DNA of 63,640 nucleotides, the filler included, from Licmophora abbreviata (taxonomy: Eukaryota), in assembly GCA_900291995.1 (NCBI GenBank). It is 31 parts of 31 records of this genome, joined end to end, with 100 filler letters (N's around TTAATTAATTAA, not from the genome) between each part and the next. Parts side by side here need not be neighbours in the genome. Positions count along the whole stretch, not along the records: positions 51,352 to 54,214 come from OLMU01005857.1; positions 54,315 to 56,376 come from OLMU01005858.1; positions 56,477 to 58,162 come from OLMU01005859.1; 28 more parts are not named here. One strand, 5' to 3'. The notes under the pieces were generated by a model. It was not told the origin of the DNA. It saw only the letters and a list, made by a program, of their open reading frames with translations, and did no database searches. Position numbers and translations under genes: made by a program. Positions 15,615 through 60,381 of this stretch are shown here, piece by piece. Every line of letters starts with the position of its first letter. Position 1 is the first letter of the stretch.

Positions 15615-17984
15615 AGCTCTACAAGGTCCCGTGGCTACTAAAGCGAACGAAGAAACCAATTTCGGAGAGATATCTTCGGTGCCATGGCTTGATGCCATGA
15701 CAAAAGAGCGTTGTCATGAGATACTTGAACATGCTCGAAAGGAAGAGGAGAACAGCGCTGCCATCTTGTTCGAAGACGAAGACACTCCGGCGTTTCTAAT
15801 CATTGAGCTTCCTGACTTTGAAATTCCTATCCTTCACGAAGAAACTCGGTATCCGCCTCAATCTGGTGCGTCGGGGTCAGTTACAGCACTCGATCTCGCT
15901 TTACGGCGTCAGAAAGACAAAGGAGAGAGCAAGACGAACACCAATGAATTCGATTTACTCCGGATGGTTCCATTTTTGGATTACGAGGATGATCTTGACA
16001 ATCCAGTTGAAGACAAGTATCGCACTTTGGCGCATGACTTGCTTCGTGGACTTGTGGATCCGGCATTGAAACCAGATAGAGAGCAGCGCGATCGGCTGGC
16101 CACGATCATTGCTTCGCCCTCACAACATCCTACGCGTGAAGACCGAGACTTGCTGTGGCGATTTCGCTTCAGCTTGGTGGACAATCGGAGGGCACTTACT
16201 AAATTTTTACTGGCAGTCGACTGGACGGTCGAGAGTGAGGTGGTACAAGCGGCAGAGCTGCTAGAACAGTGGAGACGGCGAAGCCCCATTGAAGTAACGG
16301 ACGCATTGAAACTGTTAGGAAAGCATGTGGCCTTTCAGACCAGTCTTGTACGAGACTATGCCATTGATACCCTTGCAGCTGCACCAGACGCGGAGTTGCG
16401 CCTCTACCTTTTACAGTTGGTTCAAGCCATCAAGTACGAGACCGCCGGGGATCACCTCACCTCTGGCGTTGGCAGCACGGACACGGACACGCATGGCGTG
16501 TCGTCTCTCTCGAGCTTTCTGATTGGGCGTGCTGCCAAGAATATTGAGCTATCCAACTATCTGTATTGGTACTTGAAGGTCGAACTGCACGATCCTGCAA
16601 ATGGGGCCAGATATCGTGCTGTACTGGCTGCGCTCAAGGATCGCCTATCCCGCACGCCATTTTCCGATCTCATTGCCGGCTCCTCCGATGGGGGTAGAAT
16701 CTCGGACACGTCTTCACAAACGAAAGAGACCAAGGCCACATTCATGTCGATTGTCGATTCCGTTTCGAAACTCGGATCTTCGTTGCGACACGGTGAACCT
16801 CATACAGATAATGGAGACTCACCCAGAAGGTCGTGGAGGCGGGAGACTTCTCTCTGGGACGTCTTGTTAGCACAGGATCGGTTCATTTCGGGGATTATGA
16901 ACATTCAAATGAAGAGTCGTGAAGCGAGAGGTAAGAAAGACGCGAAAGAAGTACACCTCAAGGAGCTTCTCAGTGCCGAAGGCTACGATCNNNNNNNNNN
17001 NNNNNNNNNNNNNNNNNNNNNNNNNNNNNNNNNNTTAATTAATTAANNNNNNNNNNNNNNNNNNNNNNNNNNNNNNNNNNNNNNNNNNNNGGCCTTGTAT
17101 CAGCATTGATCGAGTTTCATGTGGACTCGTCTATCCATCATGACGAGTTCGCTGACGACGACGGGTCAACTCACCCGGAGGTGCCACAGACAACGTACAA
17201 GGTGATCGTCAAGACTGGAGACGACTTGCGACAGGATCAGCTTGTGATTATGATGATACAGCTGATGGATGGTCTCCTGAAGCGAGCTACCCTTGACATG
17301 TGCCTGCGGCCATACTCGATCATTTCCATGTCCCCTTCTTCGGGACTTGTTGAGTTTGTGGACGGATCTATTCCTATTTCTCAAGTCCTGGCAAACTACA
17401 ACGGCTCGATTCTACATTTTTTCCGAGCCTGTTCTCCGCAGAAAGGAACCAAATGTGACGTCCGCCAGGACGTGATTACTACTTACATCCGAAGTTGCGC
17501 TGGCTACTGTGTCATTACGTATATTCTCGGCGTTGGAGATCGTCATCTGGACAACATAATGCTCCAGCCAACAGGCCACTTCTTCCACATTGACTTTGGC
17601 TTCATCTTTGGCCGAGACCCCAAGCCACTACCACCGGCCTTCCGACTGACGAGAGAAATGGTGGAAGGGATGGGAGGTGTCGATTCGACCGAGTACCGAC
17701 AATTCTGCTCACTCGCTTGTCAAGCCTTCAACACGTTGAGAAAAAGCGCTGGCCTGATTCTCAATCTGTTGCACCTCATGAGTGACGCTGGCATTGAAGA
17801 TCTCTCAAACAACCCGACATCCGACGCGGAAGGCGTCATTTCGAGAGTTGAGGAGCGTTTCCGCCTGGAATTAACGGACGAGCAAGCGGAGGCCTTCTTT
17901 CTGGGTCTTATCAACGACTCGTTAGCAGCGCTGGCTCCTCGGGTTATGGACGTCTTTCACTCACTTGCTGTTGCAAGGCGCTAG
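15615..17984 (+). CDS. VPS34: Class III phosphatidylinositol 3-kinase VPS34 (5' partial, interrupted by linker 16991-17090)
   Basis: NPVEDKYRTL, DLLWRFRFSL, LYLLQLVQAIKYE, KTGDDLRQDQL, SCAGYCVITYILGVGDRHLDN, HIDFGFIFGRDPKP. Confidence 0.96.
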
Positions 17985-26908: not shown

Positions 26909-29455
26909 ATGTGCAGTCGCAGTGCCTCCAACCAACGAGAGTCAGATGAGACTGGCAGCCACGGAAAACGCTCCGTTTGGAAACTGTGGACCTTCCTCTC
27001 GCTGCTTGGNNNNNNNNNNNNNNNNNNNNNNNNNNNNNNNNNNNNNNNNNNNNTTAATTAATTAANNNNNNNNNNNNNNNNNNNNNNNNNNNNNNNNNNN
27101 NNNNNNNNNAGGCATTGCTGGAAGTCGAGGTGGAAGAGGAGGACTTGGAACAGGGCTCATCAGAGCGTACCGCGATCAAGGACGAAGACGCTCGCGGGAT
27201 CAGTGATATAACGGGAGATTCCAGCTACAAGGCGACGTGGAAGGATCTAGTGTCAATCTGCTATCCTGACTTGTATCTGATTCTATGCGCCTTTGTCTTT
27301 CTGCTCCTGGCGGCAGTAGCACAGATCTACATCCCACGATTTACCGGAAACATACTTGACTCACTGACAGCCACCTTTGGCGACAATGATGACGACGAGA
27401 CGAAAAAGTCCATTTTGTATGTCCCGGGCTTTGTCTCAAATGTGGAAAAACTCGTAGTGGCATCGATCCTCGGTGGAGTCTTCTCTGGCATCCGTGGAAG
27501 TATCTTTACGATCGTGGGAGGCCGTGTGAATGTGCGCCTCCGAGTTCAGCTGATGGACTCCTTGCTTTCACAGGACATTGGATTCTTTGACGTGACCAAG
27601 ACGGGAGATATCACCAGTCGACTCAGCAGCGACACGACGCTGGTCGGAGACCAGGTCACGCTCAATGTCAATGTCTTTTTGCGATCCCTAGTGCAGGCCA
27701 TTGGCGTGCTAATCTTCATGTTTGTTACCTCCTGGCAACTCTCGTTGTTGGCTTTTATTTCAGTCCCGGTCATTACGGTCCTGAGCAAGTGGTATGGCAA
27801 TTTTGTCCGAAGCTTGACGAAGCTTATGCAGAAAAAGCTTGCGGATGGTAACTCAGTGAGTGAAGCGGCCATCGGGTCGATGGCGACTGTGCGCGCGTTC
27901 GACGCCGGGGAGAGCGAACTGCGAGAATTCGAGACTTGCATGGAAACATACTTGTCGTTGAATATTCGCAGCGCCGTTGCCTACTGCGGCTATGCTACTT
28001 GTGTTACGGCATTGCCACAGCTTGTCACGGCACTTGTCCTGTTCTATGGCGGCTTGTTAGTTCGCAACGGTGACATGACGAGCGGAGAGCTTGTGAGCTT
28101 CCTCCTGTATCTCACTTCGCTCTCGGATGCGTTCGGCAGCATCGGGTACATCTTTTCGTCCCTGACCCGAAGCTGTTGGGGCCGCGGACAAGGTGTTTGA
28201 ACTAATGCATCGGAAACCGCAACTGACGCCTCCGGCGACAAACTTGGTGACTGACGGGGATGCCTTGCCGCCCCGTGGCATCATGNNNNNNNNNNNNNNN
28301 NNNNNNNNNNNNNNNNNNNNNNNNNNNNNTTAATTAATTAANNNNNNNNNNNNNNNNNNNNNNNNNNNNNNNNNNNNNNNNNNNNGACGGGGATGCCTTG
28401 CCGCCCCGTGGCATCATGGGAATCAATGCTACGAAGACGGCTTCACATAGATGGAGTGGCATGAAGCCTGATGAGTGTCTCGGGCAGGTGTCATTGCGGG
28501 ATGTGGGTCTATTCTATCCGGCGCGACCGCAGCGTCGCGTACTCGACGAAATGAACCTGAGCATCCCGCCTGGATCGGTGGTCGCACTTGTCGGGGCAAG
28601 TGGCGGAGGTAAATCGTCTGTAATGTCACTACTGCAGCATCTGTATGAAGCATCAGAGGGCGAGGTTCTCATTGATGGCAATAAGGTAAATGTGGATGGG
28701 TCTGTTGTCAACTTCAGGTGCGCCCTGGTACTCAATTCTTGATATTCTACACGATAAACAGGTTAATGACCTTTGTCCACAATGGTTGAGTCGCAACGTG
28801 TCGGTTGTATCACAGGAGCCTACACTGTTTGCTCGTTCTATTCGACGGAACATCATGTATGGACTGGAGGGTACCGACTTTGAGCCAACCGACGAAGAAA
28901 TACAGGAAGCTGCTCGGTTAGCTAACGCGTCATCTTTCATCGAGGTATGTGTCTTATGTGTTTTCGACTGAAGCATACATTCAACAGACTTCTACTTACC
29001 AACCGTACTTCATGCTCGCTCTGCAGAAATTACCATTTGGCTACGAGACGGATGTCGGCGAGCGCGGCGTCCAGTTGTCTGGCGGCCAGAAGCAACGGGT
29101 GGCGATCTCGAGAGCTCTGGTCCGCAGGCCGCGAATCCTGTTACTCGACGAGGCGACTTCGGCCCTCGACGCTGAAAGCGAAGCTCTCGTGCAGGAGGCT
29201 ATCGACGACATGATTGCACGAGGAAGAGGAACTGCGGACGGAACCCATCCAGGAATGACCGTAATCATTGTTGCCCATCGACTGTCGACCGTTCGCAATG
29301 CCGACATCATATTTGTTGTGCAGGACGGGAAGGTCATTGAACAGGGAAATCACGATGAGCTCGTGACTAGGCCGGACGGAGCGTATCAGTCTTTGATTGG
29401 TAGACAGATGAAGGCGCAACAGAAGCTTGAGAGTGGCGGTGCTAGTTTTGGATAG
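26909..29455 (+). CDS. ABCB half transporter (TAP/ABCB9/10-like); crosses two linkers; introns 28686-28761 and 28945-29026; frameshift near 28169
   Basis: [68 protein letters not shown]. Confidence 0.92.
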
Positions 29456-42840: not shown

Positions 42841-43030
42841 GTACTATCGAGGGATCACCATCGTCAATCGACACACAACACAACACAACACAGAACCGAC
42901 AGGGATCTGCTGAAGTACCATACAATATTCAAGGCCTCTCTTGGATGTCATTATCCATTCTGGACGCCACAAAGACACACCACAACTTGATAGATGGTCT
43001 AAAGACCGATTTCTGTCATGGGTGCGCCTA

Positions 43031-43585
43031 TTACTTTGACTTTTTCGATGCCTTCGATGCCTTCGATGCCTTGGACTCCTTGGACGCCTTTGATGCTTTG
43101 GAAGCCTTGGAAGCCTTGGAAGCCTTGGATGACTTGGACTCCTTGGATGCCTTCGATGCTTTGGAAGCCTTCGATGCCTTGGACGCCTTGGATGCCTTTG
43201 ACTCTTTGGACGCCTTGGAAGCCTTGGAAGCCTTGGACGCCTTTGAAGCCTTTGATGCCTTCGAGGCCTTCGAAGACTTCGGTGCTTTCGTTGCTTTTGG
43301 TGCTTTCGTTGCCTTCGGTGCCTTCGTTGCTTTCGGCGCTTTCGATGCTTTCGGTGCCTTTGTGCCCTTCTTTCCTGACGGTGACAGGGTGTAAGTGGCA
43401 ACATAGGCTTCCATGTCTAACGCAGAGGTGTCATCAGAGGAGTCCAGCAGTTTACGATCTCGATCATGGCGCATGCGAGTGGCATATGTGGAGCCTCCGC
43501 CCTCACCTCCACGAACCTGAGCATGTGACCTAGTGGCGGCAACAATGCCAAGCAGGACGATAGAGAAAGCGGTAGAGACCTTCAT
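43031..43585 (-). CDS. Silaffin-like secreted Lys/Ser/Ala-rich protein
   Basis: Signal peptide, QVRG...TYATRM...RKL pro-peptide, short acidic segment, then over 100 aa of K-x-x repeats (KAP/KAT/KAS/KES/KSS) forming continuous KxxK motifs. Confidence 0.85.
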   Translation of the reverse strand: MKVSTAFSIVLLGIVAATRSHAQVRGGEGGGSTYATRMRHDRDRKLLDSSDDTSALDMEAYVATYTLSPSGKKGTKAPKASKAPKATKAPKATKAPKATKAPKSSKASKASKASKASKASKASKASKESKASKASKASKASKASKASKESKSSKASKASKASKASKASKESKASKASKASKKSK

Positions 43586-44134: not shown

Positions 44135-44695
44135 CAAACGAGAGAAACAATCACCGTCTTCCGGCGTACAGAATTTCGTTCGGTTGTAGACGAAAGTCCG
44201 GATGTACTTCTTGTCCTGTATGACTTTGTTAATGAAAGCCGAAAGCACCCTATCCTTGGGATCCCGCACAAAGATGGCCCTGGTGTATTCTGGAGAGTTC
44301 ATCATCTCTGTCGCTCTGCTAATATTGTATTCATTGAGATATCTGATGCCATTCGTCTTCGGGTTGTGTGGCATGCTCGAATGCCAATCCTCGTACCCCA
44401 TCATGCGTCGAAATAACTTCTTCCAATTTGTTGTGCCCACTTTCGGCACTTCCACAAAAATGAGCTTGTGGCTTTCCACGACCATTGGAGCGGTCCAAAC
44501 GTCTTGATAGACAAAGTCGGATGAATCGACAGAAGTAGTAGTAGTCTGGCGATGATGATCATTCCGATCGTTTACTGCACGTAGACTCAGTAGACTCGCA
44601 ATTGTGTTTGCCAACAGCGCTGCCAGGAGAAGAAACAACGTGATCAAGAACGACCAAGTGCCATGCACCTTCTTGGGTCGGAATGAACGAAGCAT
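44135..44695 (-). CDS. Golgi-type carbohydrate sulfotransferase (Sulfotransfer_2), 3' partial
   Basis: N-terminal TM; LIFVEVPKVGTTNWK (5'-PSB) and IFVRDPKDRVLSAF (3'-PB). Confidence 0.9.
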
Positions 44696-45258
44696 GTCTC
44701 AACTGACTCGACTCGGGGCGACGACGATGCGATCGTCGCAGAAATCAAAGTGAAAGAAGGAAGAGGGGACAGCACAAGTGTTGCCGAGTTCAGGTCAGTT
44801 GACGAAAATCCAACGCATACCAGATTCACAGAGCTCGCCAAAAACAAGAGCGAGGTCGGAAAGATGCCCTCGCATTTGGCGCGACCAACACTTACATATT
44901 TAAGTATTAATTCGCAGAAAGAGAAAAGAGCCTGTCGGACTTGATCGAATCATTGGACTCAGTTCTCGGGATATTTCGATATTTCATATTTCTCTTTTCG
45001 AAAAAATGGAGGGACTCGATTGATTCCATTCATTCATTCGCGCCTGCACCCGACGGTCATGGCTTGAAGCACAGGACGATCATAGATATCTGGTATCGGC
45101 ATCGCGAACGCAGCCAATTCCTACGTTATGGTATCATACCTACCGTACAGACTAGCCACGCGTGTGGTTCCTAAGCAGTTCTGCGTCAAATTTATTCACC
45201 AGTAGGAGTCAGTTGCGTCGCAACATTCTCATGTTGCTTATCTATAACTCTCTTCTGT

Positions 45259-45857
45259 CTATTGTTGTCGTATTAATTGTAGCTGATCTCTTGGAACGCC
45301 CTTTCGCTCCGACACTGGGCCTTTCTGAAACTCAACGTCGTAGACAACCATCTGGTAGGAGCTCGCGGTCACGACGCCCGGCCGATAGTCAACGTCCCAG
45401 AGTGCCAGAACTCGCTGCCCTGGCATAAGTTGGGAGAGCGTTTCCTCTACTACCAATATTTCATTTCGGGCGACTTCGAGTAACACATTGCCGTCATCGT
45501 CGTCTTCACATTGAATATCGAACGCACTTTCTGTTTGATGCGGGTGTTGGACGATGCCTTTCACAGTAGCTTGACAAAAGTCGTCTTGACTTTCTCGGTA
45601 CACGACAACAGCCTGGCCGATGGATAGTTCTGAGAACGTGTGTTTGTCTGAAATCTCATGACGCCGCAATGGCCATTCGGCGCCGCTCTCTTCCTCGTCA
45701 TCATCGGAAGTATCAAACACAACATAGAACCGATCCACTTGGTACATACGCGTGACGGTTGCCGGATGGGACACTATGGCACCATCCATAGCGTATGCGT
45801 AGACTCGTTCTCCAACCGAAAGATTGGCGTCGTTTGCTGTCGGCGCTGTTCGTATTC
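45259..45857 (-). CDS. Three tandem Tudor/Agenet-like repeats; probably the C-terminus of the adjacent aminopropyltransferase fusion
   Basis: Frame open to the linker; LSVGERVYA..HPATVT..FYVVFD / LSIGQAVVV..QATVKG..FDIQCED / LMPGQRVLALW..YRPGVVT..YDVEF..KGVPRDQL. Confidence 0.7.
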
Positions 45858-45957
45858 NNNNNNNNNNNNNNNNNNNNNNNNNNNNNNNNNNNNNNNNNNN
45901 NTTAATTAATTAANNNNNNNNNNNNNNNNNNNNNNNNNNNNNNNNNNNNNNNNNNNN

Positions 45958-48323
45958 TCTCATCCACTTGTACTCGTAGGGAAAGGTCACGTTGAAAGTT
46001 CACCACGCGCCCAATTCCTCGAGGCTGTTCATCGACGAGCGCCACTGTCAGGGTGTCTTGGGGGAACTGCGATGTAAGGATATCCAGAAAAAAGCCGGGT
46101 AGCTCAAAGCTCTCATTGTCATTGGCAAACCAATTCACGTCGATGTGATTCCTACCATCCCACAAGACGAGGAAGCTCCCTCCGGACCATGGGGTTACAA
46201 TCACGCACCCGTCACTGCCCGCGTCGGTGCTTATCTTTGGTGATGCGTCAGCAAGTTCTTCTGAATCCATGAGAGAGAGGGCGACCTCCACGAAGCTCAT
46301 CATGGAATCCAGTGAAAGATGCACCGATGCGGCTACCTCGAGCTGCATCAACACATGATAGGCCAGTGGCTGTTGAGAAAACCATTGACTCAGGGCAGGT
46401 TGCTGATCGTAGTGCTCGGGACCGAAAAAGTACTCCCATTCCCAGTCGGGGTCCTCCACGAACTGCCCGCCTTTGATCATTCGAACTTCAGAATCGATTT
46501 TCGTCGTTTCGTCTTGTTCTATGCGTGCCACTAGCTCAAGCAGTCGACCGACGAAGTTGTCATCTACAGATGTAGACACACCAAGCTCCATGCGGCCTCC
46601 TTCTGTAGTGTTGAAGAGGACCTCTGTTCGGAAATTCGGGTCGTTCACAATGATGGTGCTTCTGAATCTCTCCATCAAGTTCCGACGCCATGATTCGTCT
46701 TCTTCTTCTTCTTCGTCGTCGTCGTCCTCATGTATTAACGAGAGGACAAGCAAATCATCCTCCAACAGACCGACCTGATCCGATAGAATTATCTCATACG
46801 CGATTCGACCGATGGCGTAGGATGCACTCGAGTCAATGACCAGCGCACGGATCTTTTGCTTGTTTGATGCGTGAAAGGCATCCAGACTGTCACCAAGCTC
46901 TAGCTCGCAAGCCGCCATGCGCTCTGTGAAGCCTTGAGAATACTCGTTTGAGTCCGTCGAGAGCCCCGAACACGTCCAAAGGGGCAACACTTTCGCATCT
47001 CCCTTGGCCTTCTTCAACGCGTTTACTCCCTGGCAGGGCTTCCCCTTCTCGCCACAAAGCACGACTGCCACGTACGGATCGGTACCCCCAATCAACTTGT
47101 TGGCGCACTCTTTGAGGATCAAAGTTTCGACGGTCTGCTTCTTCGTGTTAGTAGTAGATGCTCGAGATCCCTCTGTGGGCTCCTCTGCAGTGCAAGGATC
47201 CGTCGCACGGGGGCCTCGCTTCATTTCATCTTCCTTCCATGTCTCTGTCCCGTACATGCCCCCCGCTACGATGCGGTAGGATGACGTGAACCTCCCGATG
47301 GCCCGACCACCGATGGCTTCCACAATAGCGTTCCGCGCCGCATCGTGCTTCTCAAAGGCACTCCAAAGATGAATATCGATTGCGGCGTACCTGTGCTCAG
47401 GCCACGTTCGAACATTGACGTATCCTTCCTGTAGAATCACTGTCACCGTAGGTTTCTCGTGGACCGTTGTCTCCATTCGACTCAATGTGTGGAAGCCTTC
47501 CTCCGCCAAAGTTGTCTCGACGGTCAATAGAAGCGCAGCGGAGTCCTTCAGATTGCCCTTGATGTCCTCTGCCTCGACAATCATCAGGACACCAGGGCTG
47601 CTCGTCTGGTTCTTTGCAGACTCTTCCTCCTGTGCGAACGCGTCATCGGCTCTACAGTGCCGTTGTGCAGTCGTATTGTGGCGATAGTCGTGAACGTACT
47701 CGTATGGATCTTCAATTGACGATAACGGCTGGATGTAGAGAGTGTCAAGCTCATGATCCCTCATCTGATCGTTGAGAAAGTCAATACGGTTGCTTCCGAG
47801 ATTCATGCATTGGGAACACACGACAGGAACGCTGGGATAGTTGATTTGAAGACTGCGGTATAGAAAACAAGAGGACAAGACTTCTGTGTCAGACTGTGTT
47901 ATCAATCAGACACGAGCTGCAACGGAACACTTTCGCACGTACCTGTACTGAAAAAGTTCGCTGAACTTGTCCATGTAGAGTTCGTTCTTAACAAAGATGC
48001 CGTCAGGCTTGAGCAAAAGCGACAGAGCCTGCAGAATGTCCAATTCGCTCGTCACGCTGAGCGACATTACCGTCTCCGACAGATCCACGAGAACCATATC
48101 AAATGATCCAAAGTAGTCAGCGGGGAGCATCAAGAGACTCTTGGCCGCATCGCCGTACCACCACTCAACTTTCTCGTTGTCAAAGTGCGGCTGCGTACCC
48201 ATGTGTAGGAAGCTGTACCGCGTAATGGTTTGGTCAAGCTCAAGACCAACAGCGAGCTCGATGGAAGGGTACTTGAGTATCTCATGGAGAAGCATGGAGT
48301 CTCCTCCACCGACCCACAGCACG
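45958..48323 (-). CDS. Aminopropyltransferase (spermidine/spermine synthase-like) + two degenerate AdoMetDC-like folds (module A); intron 47853-47942; partial at both ends
   Basis: VLWVGGGDSMLLHE, LELD, YGDA, FDMVLVD; ILQEGYVNVRTWPEHRYAAIDIHLW resembles SpeD ESHxSIHTWPE..YAAVD; ends DEQPRGIGRVVNF. Confidence 0.88.
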
Positions 48324-48423
48324 NNNNNNNNNNNNNNNNNNNNNNNNNNNNNNNNNNNNNNNNNNNNTTAATTAATTAANNNNNNNNNNNNNNNNNNNNN
48401 NNNNNNNNNNNNNNNNNNNNNNN

Positions 48424-48560
48424 CTGCCCATAGCGTGCTCGTCGTCGGTGGCTGAGACGAACATCGAAATTAGGCTCATCACCAAAACAGCTCTCATCAG
48501 GCACCATCTTCTAGCATAAGTAGTCGAGGGAAATTGGTCAAATTTGCGTCGCTTCATCAT
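48424..48560 (-). CDS. N-terminal signal/anchor fragment, likely start of the module A gene
   Basis: MMKRRKF...WCLMRAVLVMSLISMFVSA-TDDE runs into the linker on the same strand as module A. Confidence 0.55.
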
Positions 48561-48947
48561 TGCAATCTACTTCTCTACCATATACTTTCAAAAACACCGC
48601 AAAAGATTACATTCAGGGGACACTTCATGTCGACGCCGACATTCAATCTCGCCGAGCGTTGGTGATCAAAATCTTTCGCCTGGCATGCAGATCCCCGAAC
48701 ACCAACATGACTACTTGTACTCCGTGCATGACGTTGTATATCAATATTTCGATATGTGTCCTTCGCAACGGATAGTTTGGCATCGCTGGTGAAATTAACA
48801 AATATATAGTCACTAGTACAATTGAAATGATATACGCGTCGGGCGATACTCTGGCGATGCCATTCTGAGAAAGAGACGTTGCATCCTCACACTGACATCT
48901 CGCCATTGCATTCGTCGCAAAATAAGTTCTACTTGCCCATGCACCTC

Positions 48948-49992: not shown

Positions 49993-51251
49993 ATGATGGT
50001 GATCGCCTTGGCAGCAGCGACGGCTTGTCAATTACTCGTTGGCACCGGCTTCATAATAGCCTCGCTTTCCGCCGTCGAAATGGAACTTTTCCCCCCCTAC
50101 CAACCTGAGCATGTGGTGCAAGGTCCCCGAATACTGACACAGTCCGATGATGAAGAAGAAGATGGCACTGATGTTGATGCTGTTGATACCTTTAGCTTTT
50201 CGGCTTGTCTGTTGATCAAAGATGACAACCGAATTCTCCCAGAATGGCTTGCATATCATTACACCACTCTTCCGCTCCGGCATCTTGTCGTGGCGGTCGA
50301 TCCCTTTAGTCTCACCGACCCAAGTAAGATCATTCTGGACGAGTGGAGAAACAACGATGACCTGGGTATGAGAATAGACGTGTGGCACGATGAAGACTAC
50401 ATGATCTATGATTCCTCGACCATTCCAAAACCCTTTCCAAAAGATTCAGGAAGTTACAAGATTGCAGCTCATCGAGAACGACAGCCGAGCTTTTACAAGG
50501 CTTGTCTTGATCATCTTCGAAGAGAGAATAGGACTTGGACGGTTCTGATAGATTCAGATGAGTATCTTTTGCTGAACACCTTCAATTTGCCGGGGCTTCG
50601 TGAAGAGCGGTGCGAAAGGAAAGCGGAGGGACAGGCGAAAAAGGCGTGTTTCGATCGGCTGGCGATGCTGTCTGCCTCCTCGAGCAATGCTACTATGATG
50701 ACGGTCGCAGAGTTTATAGAGCGGGACATTCGAAACAACGAAACTCTTTTCAAGAATACCAGCGCTCTTCCCTGCATTTTGGTCCCACGGGTGTTCTTTG
50801 GCGGGCAGGAGACTTCTCGAGAAGAGATTTCCTCGTACGGTACGTTGCGGTTGTATGTGACCTAGGCATGCGTGGTGCAGAGACAAAGCGCACTACTGTT
50901 GTTTGTATCACTGGTCTCTCCCATACTAACGACTCTACCACTTTCTTTGATTCCAACTCTATCAATAAAGTCCCGGCTGGTTTCAATCTTTCCTTGTTTG
51001 ATACGTTGCGCTTTGGCAAGTATCTCAGATACTCTCTGGGAAGTGAGTGGCCCGGCAAGAGCGTCGTCGATGCATCGCGATTCCACGAGAAATCCATTGA
51101 CAACGCGCACCAAGCCATGAGAGATGATCTGTGTGTGGGCGACGTCTTTCCCGACCCTTTCACTTCCGTCTTTCGGGTACAGCACTACTTGGGCAGTCTC
51201 GAAGACTTTCTAACACGACCGGGTGATTCCAGGCGGACGAGCGAGGTACGT
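49993..51251 (+). CDS. GT-A fold glycosyltransferase (GT92/GT2-like diatom family); intron 50840-50970; 3' partial
   Basis: FSACLLIKDDNRILPEWLAYHY, RQ..FYKACL, WTVLIDSDEY (DxD), CILVPRVFFG, FDTLRF, GKSVVD, RVQHYLGS. Confidence 0.8.
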
Positions 51252-51351: not shown

Positions 51352-54214
51352 TCTGTCAGACGTCACGGCTGGTGTAGAGAACATTACAGCATCTTTGTCA
51401 GATGTACTAATGGTTAAGGGAGGGCAGATGCCTGAAGAGCGTGACTGGGCGTGGGAGTATTTCTTTGGTCCAAAGGACTATGATCACAAGCATGCTGCAG
51501 ATCAGTGGCTTTCTCAAGAGCCGTTGGCATACCAGGTTGTGATGCAACTGAAACAGGCCGACGGAGGTAATCTTTCCTTATCGTTGGGTGCGATCAAGAA
51601 AGCGGTCGAGATGGCACTACGTCAGATGAAATCGGATGATATTGCAACGGCAGAGCTGAAAATAAATAGCGACGTGGGAAGTGGATGTACGATTGTCGCA
51701 GTTTGGTCCGGAGGGAGCTTTGTTGTGCTGTGGGACGGCAGGGGTCGGGTAGATATCAACTGGTTTAGCTATGAGGAGCACTTTGACTTACCCGGTTACT
51801 TTCTGGACTTCTTTATGTCTCAGTTTCCTGAGGACGCGATGAAGATTGTCTTCATGGACGAACAGCCCAGGGGAACTGGGCGTGTTGTCAATTTTTTGCG
51901 TGACCTTGAGCCGCTTGTCAATCCGCGCTGGATGGAAGTTGAAGAATATGATGTACTGGCAACGAACAAGACTTCCAGCAATAGAGTCATACAGAATCAG
52001 AATCATCTGGGGAAGCGAGTTGCTCTTCTTCACATCGGTCCCTTTCCGGTATGTCCTATCTCTGTTCTCTCAATGAATGCACCGCTCCGTATCATTTGTC
52101 CAGGCCTCACAACTTAATCTTGTCTGTTTGCGGTAGGCGGGCTCGACCTCGATCCAGGCTGACCTCTGTCGACACGTACGCGACCTGGAGAACTTCAACT
52201 GGACAGTTCCAAACTGCGACTCGTTGTCCCCGTGCGTTCCTGCGTACGATTTTGTCAGTGAGATCGACACCTTTTCTATTGGGTGCTTTGCCGATGCGCT
52301 TGAGAGAGTCCCCGAGGAGAATAGCGTCCTTCTCTCTTCGGAGCTGTTCGTACAATTGATGGAGAAACCTGGTCGGCTCGAATTTCTACGGGGCCTTCTT
52401 AGCGGCTTTCAAGTCAAGATTGTCTACATACATCGGAATAAGGCATCACAGGTTCTCCCGCATTGCGTCCAGGAATCTCAAGGCTCAATCGGGCAAAAAT
52501 TTGAAAGATGTCTCGAAACACTTCGATCGAGCCGCAATCCGGACTTTCACCCGGAAATGCTACAGGCTTATGCAGACGTTTTTGGGGATGAGAATGTGTA
52601 TCTCATGTCACTTGAAAGGCTTCGAGAGTCTGGTATCACGCCATTTCGGGCGTTGATTGAAATCGAATCTTCCCTTCAAGCATTTGTCACGAAGGAGAAG
52701 AGAAATGTCAACCCAAACGTTGATGACGCAGCAGACCAAATGAAAAACTCGTTCGAGAGTTTTTTAGCCTTGAAGTTGCAAGACGAAGGATCTGCGCCGT
52801 TGAGTGACTTCGATTCAGTCTGCATGAATGATCGTCTGGTGGCGTTTGCTGAGTCTGCGTCTCTTCCTAACATTTGTGTGGAAACGGGTGAGAGGTTCAC
52901 CTCCTGGATCCAATCGGACTACGAATGGTGTAAAGACACGAAATACAACTTTCACTACTTCACGTGTGAAGACACGCTCCGAGAAGAAAATCGATCGTGT
53001 GTTGTCAATGTCGGAGCAATGATGGGAGAGGAAGATACCCGTGTTCGTGTTCTGGCGGAGGTTGACAGCATTGTTGAAAACTGTAAGAGGAGCGAAACAA
53101 ACTCTCTAAGCCGAGAGAAGAAAGTCGGGTCCACCCCTGAAGAATTGATTGCTCAGGACTCATATTTTCTTTCCCGGGCTCATGTCATCTATCGATATCC
53201 AAAAGCCCGTTTCGAGAGGCAGAATGCGATTTCCATCGTGGGCGTCTTGAATTACGATGCTAATCGACGACAAATGATCCGAGAAACTTGGGGCCACAAT
53301 CGAACAAATGTGTTCTTCATTGTGGCCGGAAACTGGACCGAAAAGCTGGAGACAGAGTTTTTGTCAACTCAAGATTTGGTCTGGATCGATCGTCCTGAGA
53401 CCTATCGTGGCTTGACGTACAAGACACAAGGTTTTATGACGGCTGTAGTTAAGCACGTCAGTCCGAGCAGTTACAAATATTTGTTCAAGACCGACGACGA
53501 CTCTTATGTGAACTTGGACAAACTGGAGAATCTTCTTGAAGATAGCAGATATCGAGATGCAAACTATATTGGTGGCCTATGCCACTCGAAGTCTAGAGTC
53601 AAGCGGGATCCCACACACAAGAACTACGAGTCAAGAAAGGTGCAACCCGATGACTTCTACAAACCTTATGCAGATGGTGTTGGCTATGCCGTCTCTAACT
53701 GGGCCGCTTCCTGCATGGTGGGTAACATACCTGGAATCAGGTACTTCGCGAATGAGGATGTCGCCACTGGGGACCTAGCTTCAAGTTGCAGAGTTTCGTG
53801 TGTCGCAAGCCTAGACATCCTCGGTGTCGACACGGGATCAAGTGTATCCATTGAAAGGCAGTCCGACAACGTCATCCTTCGGCCCCACTTGCAGTATGAG
53901 AAAGACATGCGAGAGCAACATGCCCGAACCTGTTCGAATATGACATCTTCTGTATCGTGCATCCGCGCCCTTCCCATCCAAGTGGTACCTCATTGTGATC
54001 GCGGCAAAAGAGGCTCAACATGGTGCTACGATGATCTCAGTGACGGCAAGGACCAGCGCTACTACGACCCATACGATTCGTCTGAGTGCGAGACGGAAGA
54101 TTCATTGTCATTCGATGATATGGAGGAGATCGAACCACTGGCATCTCACCACCACGATATAACTTTCTCGAAGGACCCTACGAACGACAATGTATGCTAT
54201 GCGCTGGACGATGA
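51352..54214 (+). CDS. Giant fusion, part 1: AdoMetDC-like tail (module B) - P-loop sulfotransferase-like domain - GT31 galactosyltransferase - start of aminopropyltransferase; intron 52049-52136
   Basis: DEQPRGTGRVVNF, then LHIGPFP|AGSTSIQ, then RRQMIRETWG, LTYKT, YLFKTDDDSYVN, YADGVGY, NEDVATG, then SHHHDITFSKDPTNDNVCYALDD, all in one spliced frame. Confidence 0.85.
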
Positions 54215-54314
54215 NNNNNNNNNNNNNNNNNNNNNNNNNNNNNNNNNNNNNNNNNNNNTTAATTAATTAANNNNNNNNNNNNNNNNNNNNNNNNNNNNNN
54301 NNNNNNNNNNNNNN

Positions 54315-56376
54315 TGTTGAAATGTGTGACAGCTTTCGACCTCAGTACAGCGAAATGATGGTACATTATCCTGCTCGCTACCTTGAGAACGTCAAGCGGG
54401 TCTTGTGGGTCGGCAAAGGTGACTCCATCCTGTTGCAGGAGATTCTCAAGTACCCGTCTATTGAACTGGTCGTGGGGCTAGGCATCGACCAAACACTCAC
54501 TCGGTACACGTTCAAGCACATGGGCGCCCAGCCGCATTTCGACAACGAGAAGGTTGAGTGGTGGTACGGCTATGCATTCGCTACTGTGGCTATGCTTCCT
54601 GCGAACTACTCAGGCACGTTCGATATGGTCCTGGTGGAGGCACCCGAGGCAATCATGTCGCAGCCTGTCGTGAAAGGTGTCGAGATGCTGCAGGCGCTGT
54701 CGGCGCTTCTCAAGCCGAAGGGTATCCTGGTGACGAACGAGCTCGTCATGCACAGGTTCAGTCAAGTATTCCAGTACAGGTATGTTCGATGTGAAGTTTT
54801 GCGTGATGGATGGACTGGTATTTATCTGAGTGTATTTTTAGTGTGTACTGTTTCGAGTGACTTTATACTGACAAGGTTTGTGCCCCCTCTCGCTCGAACG
54901 CAGTCTCCAGGTCAACTACCACAAAGTTCCGATGGTATGTTCACAGCACCTGGTTCTCGGGAGCAACGGAGTAGACTTCCTCAACGATGAGATGCGGGAT
55001 CACAAACTTGACACCCTCTACCTCAAGCCTTTGTCATCTATCGATGACCCCTACGAGCTCGTCCATGACTATCGGCACAATGCGACCGCTCAATGGCCCT
55101 GTCAAGGTCAAGAGCAGGCGCTGGTGGAGCCTACCAAGCAGTCCGTCAGTCGTGGTGTCTTGATGATTGTCGAGGTGGAAGATGCGAGCGGCGATCTGGA
55201 CGACCCCAAGTCAGTTATCACTGCGGTCGAGGCGAGCCTGAAGAGCGAAGGGTTCAGCGTCGTGAGTGGAGTAGAGTCGACGGCCGATAACAGGCCCGCA
55301 GTGACCATCATTCTGCGTGAAGGATACGTCGCAGTGCGGACGTGGCCAGAACACAAGTACGCAGCGATCGACATTCATCTCTGGAGTGCGTTTGACCAGC
55401 ACGGGGCAGCGCGGAAAGCTGTTGTGAAAGCCGTCGGTGGTCGGGTCGACAAATCGACATCGTCGTACCGCATCGTAGCTGGCGGAATGTACGGGACGAC
55501 GACGTGGAAGGACGACGAAAAGAAGCGGGGTCCACAGGCCACCGACGCTTGCGTCGAGACGTCCGCGGTGGTGCCTCTTGCCAAGTCTATGGGGAAAGGT
55601 ACTAGGGAGATAATTGTCCAAGAGGGTGTGGTGCGGCTGGTCGATGAGATCGACTTTGTCGTGGCGGTACTCTGCGGAGCGAAAGGGTCACCCTGTAAAG
55701 ATGTAGACACGCTGAAGAAAGCCAAGGGCGTGGGCCGAGTTGTACCTCTTTGGACTTGTCCTGACCTGGTGGGCAGGAATGGTACTGGCGATACAGTTTC
55801 CACCGAGCGTATGGTGGCATGCGAGCGAGATCTGGCGTCGAGCTTGACCGACTCGATCTGGGTCGGCGATAAGATTCGTGCGCTGGTCGTCGACTCGAGC
55901 GCATCGTACGAGATCGGCCGAGTCGCGTATGAGATGTTAAAAACGAACAAGAATCGCCTGCTGAAGGACAATCTGCTTGTCATGTCTTTGATGCGTGACG
56001 AGGAGGGGGAGTCATGGCGTCGGAACTTGGTGGAGAAATTCCGAACGGAAGTCATTGTGGACGACCCGAACTTCAGGACCGAGGTGGTCTTCAGTAGTAC
56101 AGAGGGCAGCCTGGAGCTGGGCGTGTGCACGTCTGTCGGTGACCATTTCGTTCGTCAACTAACAGAAGTCTCATCGATTGTCCAAGAAAAGACCTCGCTG
56201 GCTTCGGAAGTACGGATGGTTAAGGGCGGGCAGCTGTCCGAAGAGCCTGACTGGATGTGGGAATATTTCTTTGGTCCAAAGGACTATGATCACAAGCATG
56301 CTACAGATCAGTGGCTTTCTCAGGAGCCGTTGGCATACCAGGTTGTAACTCAGCTTAAGTTGGTGAAACGAGCGTC
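54315..56376 (+). CDS. Giant fusion, part 2: degenerate aminopropyltransferase + AdoMetDC-like domain (module C); intron 54780-54903
   Basis: MCDSFRPQYSEMMVHYPARYL..KRVLWVGKGDS; ILREGYVAVRTWPEHKYAAIDIHLW; colinear with module A including intron position. Confidence 0.88.
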
Positions 56377-56476
56377 NNNNNNNNNNNNNNNNNNNNNNNN
56401 NNNNNNNNNNNNNNNNNNNNTTAATTAATTAANNNNNNNNNNNNNNNNNNNNNNNNNNNNNNNNNNNNNNNNNNNN

Positions 56477-58162
56477 CTTTGTATCTCAATTTCCCGAGGA
56501 GGAGTTGAACGTTGTCTTGGTGGACGAACAGCCAAGGGGAACTGGCCGTGTTATCAATTTCTCGCGTGACCTTGACCCAAGCGACACTCCTCATTGGACA
56601 AGCCATGATTATCAAACTCCTGCTGGTACAACGTCCATTTTTGAGTCTGCGAAGAGCCTCACATCATCAGAGGTGACGCGTCAGTTGGAGTACGTTCACA
56701 TTACGAAAGTGGGTGGAACCGCGCTCGAGGATGCTGCACTAGCCCAGGACGGCGTCGTTTGGGGCCGCCAGCATTATCCAGAAAGCGGCTGGGCGCTGCC
56801 ACCCTTGTCGATTCCGCCATCTATTCATGTCGGATACTTGGGTGAACCATGGCACACGCCTCAACATTGGATCACGCCTCACCCGTTGGAGGGCGCAGAC
56901 ACGTTCGCTGTTGTCCGTAACCCGTACGCTCGGTATGTCTCTGAGTATTTCTGCGAGTGGTACCCCTGGAACAGTCCTGAAAATGTGAGAATCGACAAAG
57001 CGGACATTATGAATACGTGGATACAAAAGTTCATCCGTCGCAACCGGGACGTAGAACAGCATGGTCATATGCTTCCTCAGCACTACTATATCTACGATGA
57101 GAAGACGGGGGAGCAGCAAGTGGATCATGTCCTAAAATACGAGGATGATTTGCCCGATAACTTCTCCGTGTTTGTGGCCAAGTATGGCCTCAACATCACT
57201 TTGGAACCCAAGAAGCCCTCCAAGCGAAAGACAGGTATAAAGGATCTATCGGAGGCAACAATTCGACTCATCAATGACTACGCAGCGAAAGACTTTGAAT
57301 TGCTGCAGTATCCCATGGTAAAGTCATCCGTCGAATTCACCGACGCCGATGGCTCCGTCGCTGCGAGTTCGGAGAAAGTTTCAACTGACAAAGAAGAAAA
57401 CCCAACTACGCCACAAGATTTGCTCTTGACTGTCCCTTTCTACATTTACGACGACTTTGGTTTACCCGACGACGTCACCCTCGACGGCAAGCGGTTCGTC
57501 ATGGAGGACATTGATCCAGAGAAGCCGCTTCATTCCGTGTCCCCGCTGCTGAGCAAACACGCGGACGATGTCTTGTTCGCCAGAGCTGCAATGAAACATC
57601 CCATGAGGACGCTCGATCCCAGCAAGGCCGAGCTGTTCTTAATCCCTACGCCCTTTAATATGATCATGGATCGGATGAAATTCGGGGGCAAACTGTGCGT
57701 CAAGAAGATTTGCAATATGGACCTGGTTCGACACGTGGACCAGGTCCTGTCGTCCACAAGTTGGTTTCAAAGGCACGGTGGAAAAGACCATGTTGCGGTG
57801 TTGAGTCACTGGGGTTGGCACGATGACTGGTTTTGGAACAAGTTCATTGGTGATTGGTGGCCTAAACACATTCACCGGTGTAATGCCATTGGCTTTGAGG
57901 ACAAGTTCCGCCATCGCGCCAAGGACCGCATTGTGTTTCCATCCTACTACGTCGGCAGACCATGTCCACCACCGACTAGTAGTGGAGACAATAAGAAGAG
58001 ACCTCACGATTTTGCCATGATCACGACACTGGAACGGAGAGACCAAGATGTAAAATTCCAAGACCGCATGAATATTTGCAAGTGGATCCAGAAGGAGACG
58101 ACACATTCTATGCCTTCGTGTGGGGAAGGAAGTCAGTGCCCGGCGCTCTCCCAAGCCAAGTA
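56477..58162 (+). CDS. Giant fusion, part 3: module C tail - Sulfotransfer_2 domain - exostosin/GT47-like domain; 3' partial
   Basis: DEQPRGTGRVINF; LEYVHITKVGGTALE and FAVVRNPYARYVSEY; PFYIYDD, HPMRTLDPSKAELFLIP, WFQRHGGKDHV in one ORF. Confidence 0.85.
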
Positions 58163-58262: not shown

Positions 58263-58833
58263 AAATCGGAACGCTACTGCAAGACGAGCGGAGTCGCATC
58301 GAAAATCGAGTTCACGAAGCCAGCAGTCCTTCTTGTCGAATATTGGGCGGTCTCTCTCGGATGCGCTAGTCGTACCGGACGACGTGGAAATCAGTACGGA
58401 TGGTTCGGATCGGCAATCGTATACGGATGAAGATCGATCCCATTCTCCCGATCCTGATGATTCGAGGACTCGCGATCGTCGGGACGAAGACTCTCGACCG
58501 TCTTCTCCCGGCGGTAGCGAAGCGAACGTTAGCACTACGGAGGTAAGTGCCGTGAAAAATCTTGCTTTTGTCTAGTATCTTCGCTGGGTCTTGTCTAACG
58601 CTGGTTTTGCTCTCTTTCCGTCACTTGCTTCTGTCTCAGTCCATGTCACTGCAGGAGCGGCAGCATGTGCAGCGTGCGCAACAGTTGCGCTTTTTGAAGG
58701 AGCAGGGATTGATCCGGGACGAAAAGGCCATGAATGGTGGCCCGGGCCCTGCATCTCCCAAGAGGAGAACAACCTCCGACTCGGGGTCCATCATTTCGTT
58801 GACTGGAACTTCTACAACGGATGCGAACCGATA
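58263..58833 (+). CDS. Hypothetical Ser/Asp/Arg-rich C-terminal fragment; intron 58543-58639
   Basis: GTAAGT...CTCAG intron joins two ORFs (…VSTTE|SMSLQERQ…LRFLKEQGLI). Confidence 0.55.
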
Positions 58834-59562: not shown

Positions 59563-60381
59563 TCAGCTGAGAAGTTTCTTCCGTGCCACCTCTGCTTGCT
59601 TGGTAGTGTGCCGGTTAATGGTCAATTCTCCGTTCGTGTGCATTCGCTCTAATACCAGATGCTCACGAAAGATTGAGTGGCCGGGGCTTTTGGGGTTGAA
59701 CTGAAAGTTTGCATCACCAATGCCCTTGACCCTTGAACAATCCTTTGGCTTTGGCATATTGAAGTGATATGGATAGCACGGGTCTTCCTCCCTTCCGAAG
59801 AGAGTCACAGACTTGCAATTCTCAACAGCCCACATTACAGCCATCATTCCAGAACTGCAATACTGACCCTTACGTAGAGACACGAACTTTGTACAAGCCA
59901 ACCATTTCGACAACGGTAAAAGCGTCCATTTGGAAGATGTCTTGGCGCTCCATTTCTTGTATTGCGCTGACGATTCTTTGGCCGTAGTCTGGTATGTGAT
60001 ACCGGTCAGTTTAGGATTGTTTTGCTTAGCGAACCAGACGCCTGGTGAGGAGTAGTTGCTCTGCTGAAATGCTCCAAAGTGGACAAGCCAATGTGTGGTT
60101 TTGCTCCCCACGTACTCTTCAAAGCCATCCGGAACGGCGCCATTGATTCTGAGAACTTTATCAAACGAGTCGATGAGTGGGCCATCGTGGAACTTGAGTA
60201 AGCTCCCGGAGCTGAAAACGACAGCGCAGGACCCTGGAGGCTTCTTCGCGGGGAGGGTTTTCTTGCTATCGGCGGTGATTGGTACCTTCTTGGAAACGGT
60301 TTTAGGGTCCTTGAAAGGGTTCCATTTCTTGGGATGTTTGTCCTTGCTCTTTCTGAGCGGGTTTCGTATCGGAAGAGTCAA
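59563..60381 (-). CDS. GT29 sialyltransferase-like protein (5' partial)
   Basis: Sialylmotif [11 protein letters not shown]...[13 protein letters not shown]...VGSKTT, motif [22 protein letters not shown], motif III-like YHF, VS-like HSIFREH. Confidence 0.88.

Follow-up and report, generated by a model that had tools for sequence, protein, structure and literature searches.

The diatom Licmophora abbreviata appears to carry a very long gene in which a polyamine-type module lacks its stop and runs on, in frame, into glycan-modifying domains, apparently at least twice in tandem. With modest confidence, we favour the view that this gene is real and encodes a lumenal multi-enzyme. It was recognised in a 63,640-base stretch of assembly GCA_900291995.1 (the window), which is composed of 31 contigs (1.06-8.1 kb) with the same 100-base linker, made up of an N-run, TTAATTAATTAA and a second N-run, at each of the 30 joins. 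The fusion spans three contigs, referred to as B (51352-54214), C (54315-56376) and D (56477-58162), while A and E denote the contigs that flank B-D. Its module would comprise an aminopropyltransferase, a dead S-adenosylmethionine decarboxylase (AdoMetDC) domain, a middle domain and a second dead AdoMetDC-like tail, which ends the protein in relatives. The predicted order within the fusion is a tail, a P-loop-like domain, a glycosyltransferase of family GT31, a second module, a Sulfotransfer_2 domain and a GT47 glycosyltransferase, with both ends open. That the in-frame fusions exist at the DNA level is quite probable, and a single frame of more than 2,000 codons is somewhat more likely than not.

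Continuity of the reading frame

Contig B opens within a module. From its first codon, a frame of 232 codons (51353-52048, on the plus strand like all features of the fusion) encodes the end of a middle domain and the second AdoMetDC-like tail, which terminates with ...NPRW (51353-51931); the upstream part of this first module lies outside the contig. No Pfam family matches 51353-52048, and the tail is recognised solely by homology to the C-terminal end of its relatives, tblastn aligning it with residues 1020-1217 of P0036 and 1104-1347 of P0050. Beyond the relatives' end point, 39 stop-free codons (51932-52048) close with LHIGPFP, and an 88-nt intron with canonical GT..AG ends (52049-52136, GTATGT...GGTAG) cuts the P-loop-like motif LHIGPFP|AGSTSIQ exactly. 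After the intron, the frame is open for 692 codons up to the end of the contig (52137-54212). It encodes a P-loop-like domain of about 340 residues that begins at this motif and has no family assigned (52137-53156), a GT31 domain (Galactosyl_T, PF01762; 53262-53801) matched with an E-value of 1.9e-26 and 93.5 bits against a Pfam cut-off of 23, and the conserved N-terminal region of a second module (WCYDDL...KDPTNDNVCYALDD; 54021-54214). Altogether, at least 731 further codons stay open past ...NPRW.

Contig C contributes 645 stop-free codons in two exons (54316-54779 and 54904-56376, the latter reaching the contig end) that are separated by a phase 2 intron of 124 nt (54780-54903). The aminopropyltransferase occupies 54315-54779 (Spermine_synth, Pfam E 3.6e-14 over 54343-54744) and displays the variant residues GKGDS, GLGIDQ, YGYAF and VLVEAPE. 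The rest of module 2, i.e. the AdoMetDC-like and middle domains and the beginning of the tail, was assigned to 54904-56376 by homology and PDB alignment, with an AdoMet_dc match at 55166-55435 (E 1.1e-6, 29.3 bits against a cut-off of 25). Splicing of intron 2 yields ...QVFQY-S-LQVNY, to which relatives align without a gap (IFDYSIQIHY), and its position is the same as that of an intron (47853-47942) in paralog F, a module gene on the minus strand of the window that extends over three contigs (45262-48566).

Contig B ends with ...KDPTNDNVCYALDD and two bases, and in contig C a single base precedes VEMCDSFRPQY. When put together at zero gap, the contigs form one codon across the join (...CYALDD-D-VEMCDSFRPQY) and a frame of 1,570 codons without a stop. 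A preliminary description of this DNA had proposed such a seamless join on removal of the linker at 54215-54314, and it is borne out by the alignment to relatives, which is gapless over the join and the N-terminal region before it in all four that were tried (P0036, P0042, P0050 and P0051; e.g. KDPKNDNVCFDISNIIQMCGSYRPHY in P0036). Hence, B and C represent adjacent parts of one coding sequence, and the true gap beneath this artificial linker is most likely zero bases.

A second transition of this type is found in contig D, where a frame of 561 codons is open at both ends (56478-58160). It enters a module tail at FVSQFPEE..., passes ...DEQPRGTGRVINF...TPHW (56478-56597), which aligns with the extreme C-terminus of the relatives, and goes on for 521 codons. 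A stop-free linker without Met (56598-56696) leads into the Sulfotransfer_2 domain (PF03567; 56697-57311), whose Pfam match (56850-57311) lies above the cut-off of 22 bits both with the whole open reading frame (ORF; E 4.5e-5, 24.1 bits) and with the fragment (E 5.1e-6, 27.2 bits). The domain contains HITKVGGTALE (56697-56729) and VVRNPYARYVSEY (56910-56948), with HITKVGGT and RNPYARYVSEY preserved, and the GT31 domain of contig B has the acidic motif FKTDDDSYV at 53484-53510. We take HITKVGGT and RNPYARYVSEY, as well as FKTDDDSYV, to be the functional motifs of their families, and the first two are spaced as expected. A GT47 (exostosin)-like domain comes next, of which the N-terminal half is present (57381-58160) before the contig ends at 58162; no continuation of it was found in contig E. 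Thus, the in-contig successions that had been put forward previously, from the B tail via the P-loop-like domain and GT31 to the next module and from the D tail via Sulfotransfer_2 to the GT47-like domain, hold without a stop in between. No Pfam family is present in antisense ORFs within the fusion or in a plus-strand ORF at 58264-58572.

The linker of contig D also holds the sequence PAGTTSI (56619-56639), which resembles PAGSTSI of contig B (52134-52157) with different codons. This heptapeptide may be what is left of a B-type domain in D, or else an element conserved at the junctions.

Neither of the domains downstream of the two tails is able to start alone. In contig B, the tail exon and the following domain share their exon-intron structure, since the intron splits LHIGPFP|AGSTSIQ; retention of the intron would introduce a stop near 52115 and deprive the 692-codon frame of any start ahead of its P-loop motif. 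In contig D, there is neither a Met nor a hydrophobic anchor from PHW to HITKVGGT. The stand-alone GT31 relatives P0001, P0002 and P0005 possess an N-terminal hydrophobic (type II) anchor, as does a stand-alone sulfotransferase of the same scaffold, whereas the fused GT31 and Sulfotransfer_2 domains have none. The contig D domain resembles the Golgi type II carbohydrate sulfotransferases (PF03567) in its Pfam match and in HITKVGGT and RNPYARYVSEY, but differs from them in that it lacks an N-terminal anchor and stem of its own and is set between a module tail and a GT47-like domain.

Contig C ends inside a tail (...YQVVTQLKLVKRA) and contig D opens further along one. If both belong to one gene, the artificial linker at 56377-56476 conceals 81 tail codons with contig B as the ruler and 80 with paralog F, in agreement with the roughly eighty estimated earlier. 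Were the adjacency of C and D accepted, the predicted frame would measure at least 2,212 codons with both ends open, about 2,130 of which are sequenced and free of stops and frameshifts. The tails of B and C have a segment of about 90% DNA identity in common (51410-51540 and 56216-56346; MVKGGQ...LAYQVV).

Relatives of the module and novelty of the architecture

Judged by sequence, the module belongs to the diatom AdoMetDC/aminopropyltransferase fusion family. A variant of this family with a catalytically dead AdoMetDC and with SET or Tudor partners is said to have been described by Michael in 2011 (FEBS Lett 585:2627). The 490-residue exon of contig C is covered to 99% by 60 diatom proteins of 861-1,589 residues (E down to 3e-125), with which it is collinear in the order Spermine_synth and AdoMet_dc-like; the named relatives of this central module are all from diatoms (Thalassiosira, Seminavis, Epithemia, Corethron, Odontella, Chaetoceros, Cylindrotheca and Skeletonema). 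Other Pfam families in the 60 long relatives include SET (25/60), Tudor/Agenet-type (3/60) and ShK (3/60), which agrees with the earlier statement that SET and Tudor are the known partners, while PF03567, PF01762, PF03016 or any other sulfotransferase or glycosyltransferase family occurs in none of them. The fusion departs from this family in that it runs past the module end into the P-loop-like domain and GT31, or into Sulfotransfer_2 and GT47, and in that GT31, rather than SET or a signal peptide, lies ahead of module 2. Multi-domain AdoMetDC-aminopropyltransferase fusions of diatoms are also cited in the accessible passages of PMC3820600 and PMC6356823.

Most relatives stop soon after the tail. 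A search with the B tail (phmmer/HMMER, 1.84 billion representatives) gave 459 relatives, 150 of which were listed. In total, 199 relatives were fetched, and 195 could be aligned to the tail end ...DEQPRGxGRVVNF...PHW. The protein extends past this point by at most 15 residues in 166 cases, by 16-40 in 19, by 41-100 in nine and by 156 in one. Among the ten relatives with more than 40 extra residues, the six that were scanned show no domain past the tail but acidic tails or low-complexity read-through (P0148), and the precomputed families of three among the other four (P0093, P0095, P0064 and P0225) contain no sulfotransferase or glycosyltransferase. In a metagenome scan with a seven-sequence tail alignment, 50 loci were obtained, 13 of which had downstream sequence that was examined. 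The frame stops directly past the tail in ten of these 13, and it shifts before the tail end in L022, L027 and L028. ORFs downstream of the 13 tails match helicase, proteasome ATPase, EamA, SDR, alpha-kinase, bestrophin and aldolase families as well as one SET domain and one weak methyltransferase, with no sulfotransferase or glycosyltransferase among the Pfam matches. Likewise, tblastn of the sulfotransferase, glycosyltransferase, Tudor and GT29 domains of the window gave no match in the 50 loci. The fused architecture was seen in none of the 60 long relatives and in none of the 50 metagenome loci.

Three of these loci deserve separate mention. In L030 (1301-1768, plus strand), an ORF with a SET domain lies about 1 kb downstream of the module tail, a layout hinting that another diatom has its module genes arranged in tandem. 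In L027 (519-947, plus strand) and L028, the tblastn match to the tail query reaches residue 228 with changes of frame, and one of the two has a weak, sub-threshold Methyltransf_25 match past the tail (E 3.9e-4). Both loci may represent other tail extensions.

Multi-domain glycan enzymes seem to be common among the relatives of the fusion's GT31 domain (818-1,113 residues): P0004 combines Exostosin with Galactosyl_T, P0006 Galactosyl_T with Sulfotransfer_2, and P0003 two Galactosyl_T domains with LicD. Animal EXT1/2, NDST and chondroitin synthase are likewise multi-domain glycan enzymes. The fusion resembles P0003, P0004 and P0006 in having several glycan-building or sulfating domains on one lumenal polypeptide, yet these proteins are without a polyamine-type module. 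From sequence comparison, the combination of polyamine module with sulfotransferase or glycosyltransferase is new among everything searched. No description of it was found in the open-access papers that were searched.

Assembly, decay and the case for one gene

Several observations weigh against a single giant gene, and those of the first kind concern the assembly. It is highly fragmented into short contigs and breaks exactly at sequence repeated among the module copies, and all contig breaks of the fusion fall inside or beside the ~90% identical segment of the B and C tails, whose C version is also found in an independent metagenome contig (X2 record 7). The adjacency of C and D, as well as everything upstream of 51352, is supported by scaffold order alone. 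Contig B was matched by 15 independent DNA pieces, 151-305 nt long and drawn from four runs. One of them is the paralogous C copy, and no piece lies over 51627-52006, ahead of the first junction, or bridges a contig end. No RNA runs containing 51352-54214 were found. The fused architecture was detected in no other organism among the 199 relatives and 50 loci and is hence without comparative confirmation. An artefact of assembly or scaffolding, in which chimeras arose at sequence common to the module copies or unrelated contigs were juxtaposed while the genes are really separate, could account for the position of the breaks, the short contigs, the uncovered stretch and the unique architecture.

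This explanation is nevertheless quite improbable. The same type of junction occurs in two contigs with unrelated linkers, the frame stays open for a further 521-731 codons, and the domains behind the tails possess neither a start codon nor an anchor. At the first junction, the motif is split by an intron, and a metagenome DNA piece (X1 record 2) spans 52007-52157 with one mismatch and includes the whole intron. The B|C join agrees with the relatives residue by residue. Moreover, the scaffold order is credible because consecutive domains of other genes continue over linkers in the right order and strand, with five such cases of correct order. Over one linker, the PI3K accessory domain (15616-16989) leads to the PI3/PI4-kinase domain (17091-17981), ABC_membrane (27112-28197) is continued by ABC_tran (28922-29452) with order and strand kept, and all three pieces of paralog F are in the correct order and strand. 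If the fusion were an artefact after all, it would show how arrays of paralogous modules break short-read assemblies of diatoms.

Objections of a second kind concern the identity of the fused domains. The P-loop-like domain at 52137-53156 had been described as a sulfotransferase, and this assignment was not confirmed: it gave no match to Pfam (E up to 10), to NCBIfam or to PDB sequences. BLASTP revealed no match to the contig D or stand-alone sulfotransferases, and a pattern scan of prokaryote genomes found no prokaryotic relative. Its loop would lack the Lys of HIGxxKTGTTSLQ, which we take to be the motif of sulfotransferase loops that bind 3'-phosphoadenosine 5'-phosphosulfate. The nearest ESM Atlas clusters are bacterial (similarity 0.94) and some are named 'sulfotransferase family', 14-23% of the members of the nearest named clusters bearing a sulfotransferase Pfam family. 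As a model-based lead only, the domain may thus be called sulfotransferase-like. For the region at 56478-58160, the PDB sequence search gave no match either, and single-sequence AlphaFold2 models of both regions were unusable (mean predicted local distance difference test scores of 34.3 for 52137-53156 and 31.2 for 56478-58160). Apart from a sub-threshold AdoMetDC match, the NCBIfam search was without result. The GT47 assignment is likewise affected, as Exostosin_GT47 (PF03016) is matched with 26.5-28.3 bits (E 5.1e-6, 57594-57824), below the cut-off of 33.4 and over profile positions 48-116 of 293. The region is 34% identical to that part of P0004 in which PF03016 is found. A search of a set of 5.8 billion proteins for longer proteins with the contig D protein returned none that scored, and a metagenome scan with contig D gave no match. 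Of the Pfam families expected beforehand, Spermine_synth, AdoMet_dc, Galactosyl_T and Sulfotransfer_2 are matched and Exostosin stays below its cut-off, and the suggested repeat unit is present as [polyamine module]-[P-loop-like or sulfotransferase]-[glycosyltransferase].

Finally, the state of module 2 may point toward loss of function. In its AdoMetDC-like domain, ilrEGYvavRTWPEH aligns to llaESHisiHTWPEH of the solved proenzymes 2iii and 1tlu, and the pyruvoyl-forming Ser is absent since EGY stands where the proenzymes have ESH. This Ser is missing from both AdoMetDC-like domains, as it is in the dead-AdoMetDC family. Compared with solved spermidine synthases and the 60 relatives, the aminopropyltransferase has a K in place of the glycine-loop G (GGGD; G in 58/60 relatives), a G in place of the Glu of EID (E in 60/60), a Y in place of the Asp of GDA (D in 59/60) and an E in place of the Asp of D-x-S-E (D in 60/60). 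These positions presumably serve the binding of decarboxylated S-adenosylmethionine and catalysis, as in the spermidine synthase literature. Paralog F retains all four residues, and only one copy of the fused module can be checked in this respect, in which it differs from the diatom family. Hence, the 'polyamine synthase' part is probably not a synthase.

The loss of the four residues could equally reflect decay of a recently fused, non-functional gene. In this case, the DNA would be real, but no single working giant enzyme would exist: the locus might be a decaying array, or separate products might arise from internal promoters, alternative splicing, polyadenylation or proteolysis. The missing Lys of the P-loop-like motif, the lack of an RNA run and the lack of a relative with this architecture would fit such a scenario, as would the cleavage of diatom cell-wall precursors at RXL sites mentioned in the accessible part of PMC4557024, given an RQL just ahead of the sulfotransferase loop in contig D. 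We regard it as unlikely, however, in view of the absence of stops and frameshifts over the sequenced frame, the canonical ends and phase retained by the introns, the intact GT31 and Sulfotransfer_2 motifs and the missing start that intron retention would cause. In addition, contig C and paralog F are 60% identical with a ratio of nonsynonymous to synonymous substitution rates (dN/dS) of about 0.18 over 609 codons, dS being near saturation. Together with the conserved intron position, this ratio indicates that the sequence has been under purifying selection and that the module has been kept as a protein.

Neighbouring genes and possible function

Paralog F represents the classical form of the diatom family. 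This stand-alone gene encodes a signal-like N-terminus (48426-48566), a module with canonical aminopropyltransferase, dead AdoMetDC and tail (45959-48322), and a Tudor-like region with the stop (45262-45855). It is divergent from a GT2-like gene on the plus strand (49993-51251; Pfam Glyco_tranf_2_4, 2.1e-6), the starts of the two being about 1.4 kb apart. The GT2-like protein has an N-terminal hydrophobic anchor and is open at the contig end. The suggestion that the fusion begins with this glycosyltransferase was not confirmed, as nothing ties it to the frame; because contig B begins mid-module, about 1,000 codons would need to sit in the gap between A and B. Directly downstream of the Tudor-tailed paralog F is the stand-alone Sulfotransfer_2 gene on the minus strand (44135-44698; Pfam 9.5e-17), which encodes its own Met and a type II hydrophobic anchor and is ended by the contig end. 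A fusion of this sulfotransferase to the Tudor gene was considered and ruled out by the stop at 45262 and by its own Met and anchor. A GT29 (sialyltransferase-family) fragment on the minus strand lies at 59566-60381 (Pfam 3.6e-22).

The same scaffold encodes a small, apparently secreted protein of 184 residues (43028-43585, minus strand) with a signal-like peptide, an RKL sequence and a 114-residue (KAS/KAP/KAT)n region. This region is encoded by about 35 copies of a 9-nt repeat; KXXK occurs in it 37 times, and its residues are 35% Lys and 26% Ser. The protein resembles silaffins and cingulins in the signal-like peptide, the RXL-type site and the Lys/Ser-rich KXXK region, and differs from them in its very simple tripeptide repeat and in being known here from sequence alone. 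Silaffins are not conserved in sequence. With the signal peptide judged by eye, the protein passes the silaffin-like screen given in PMC3820600, which asks for a length of 100 residues or more, Ser of 18% or more and Lys of 10% or more, plus a signal peptide for the endoplasmic reticulum (ER). It may thus be a candidate silaffin-like substrate beside modification genes.

According to PMC4557024 and bioRxiv 10.1101/2021.09.18.460806, the Lys residues of silaffins bear polyamine or methyl groups, their hydroxy-amino acids are sulfated, glycosylated and phosphorylated, and KXXK may be a recognition motif of the modifying enzymes. In Seminavis, AdoMetDC-aminopropyltransferase genes peak alongside cell-wall genes at cytokinesis (bioRxiv 10.1101/2020.11.23.393678, accessible part). 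Conceivably, the fusion product acts in the ER, the Golgi or the silica-deposition pathway on secreted Lys/Ser-rich (KXXK) cell-wall proteins, for example silaffin-like ones. The polyamine-type module could dock the enzyme onto Lys-rich or polyamine-modified stretches; the copy seen is probably non-catalytic, given the exchanged residues for cofactor binding and catalysis. O-glycans may be made by the GT31 and GT47 domains, and the Sulfotransfer_2 domain could sulfate them. In this way, one polypeptide would gather modification types that co-occur on silaffins. All domains fit a single lumenal topology, as P0036, P0042 and P0050 start with hydrophobic, signal-like peptides (by eye) and the stand-alone GT31 proteins have type II anchors. 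That the substrate is of the silaffin type is possible rather than probable, and the KXXK gene is linked to the fusion by adjacency on one scaffold only, a point that speaks against such a function, as does the lack of a conserved cluster in the 13 related loci, where the downstream neighbours are unrelated genes.

The main functional rival is that the fusion acts on polysaccharides. It would then produce or decorate sulfated exopolymers or mucilage, and the dead polyamine module would have no more than a structural role or would bind polyanions. Sulfotransfer_2, GT31, GT47 and GT29 are, as we take it, carbohydrate-directed families, and the aminopropyltransferase of the module is probably inactive. 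Furthermore, diatom sulfotransferases and glycosyltransferases of Seminavis are also tied to exopolymer production in the accessible part of bioRxiv 10.1101/2020.11.23.393678, which detracts from the protein-directed role favoured here. On the other hand, relatives of the module are joined to the protein-lysine-directed SET and Tudor-type domains, the module genes are co-expressed with cell-wall genes in the Seminavis study, and the KXXK-repeat protein is encoded on the same scaffold. Carbohydrate-directed enzymes fit both readings, because silaffin glycans are themselves sulfated (PMC4557024, available passages). Overall, an action on polysaccharides appears fairly unlikely.

Returning to a protein-directed multi-enzyme, the gene could be regarded as a 'Rosetta-stone' fusion that provides the first genomic link between the polyamine/lysine modules and the enzymes glycosylating and sulfating silaffins. 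Its product would be a lumenal assembly line whose catalytically dead polyamine module binds KXXK or polyamine-lysine stretches, beside which anionic modifications are added. The gene would form part of a small cluster together with the KXXK-repeat substrate candidate, the Tudor-tailed paralog and more sulfotransferase and glycosyltransferase genes. This extended proposal is speculative, and we consider it somewhat doubtful. If true, the zwitterionic pattern controlling silica precipitation would be set by one polypeptide. In the accessible passages of PMC4557024 and bioRxiv 10.1101/2021.09.18.460806, the kinase tpSTK1 is the sole modifying enzyme whose action on silaffins is presented as demonstrated, the others being candidates. 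The fusion would supply candidate enzymes, open to testing, for the sulfation and glycosylation of silaffins, and it would back a lumenal, protein-directed role of the 'dead AdoMetDC' modules. It would also suggest that these modules act as docking domains rather than as synthases, which would be useful for reconstituting the maturation of silaffins in vitro.

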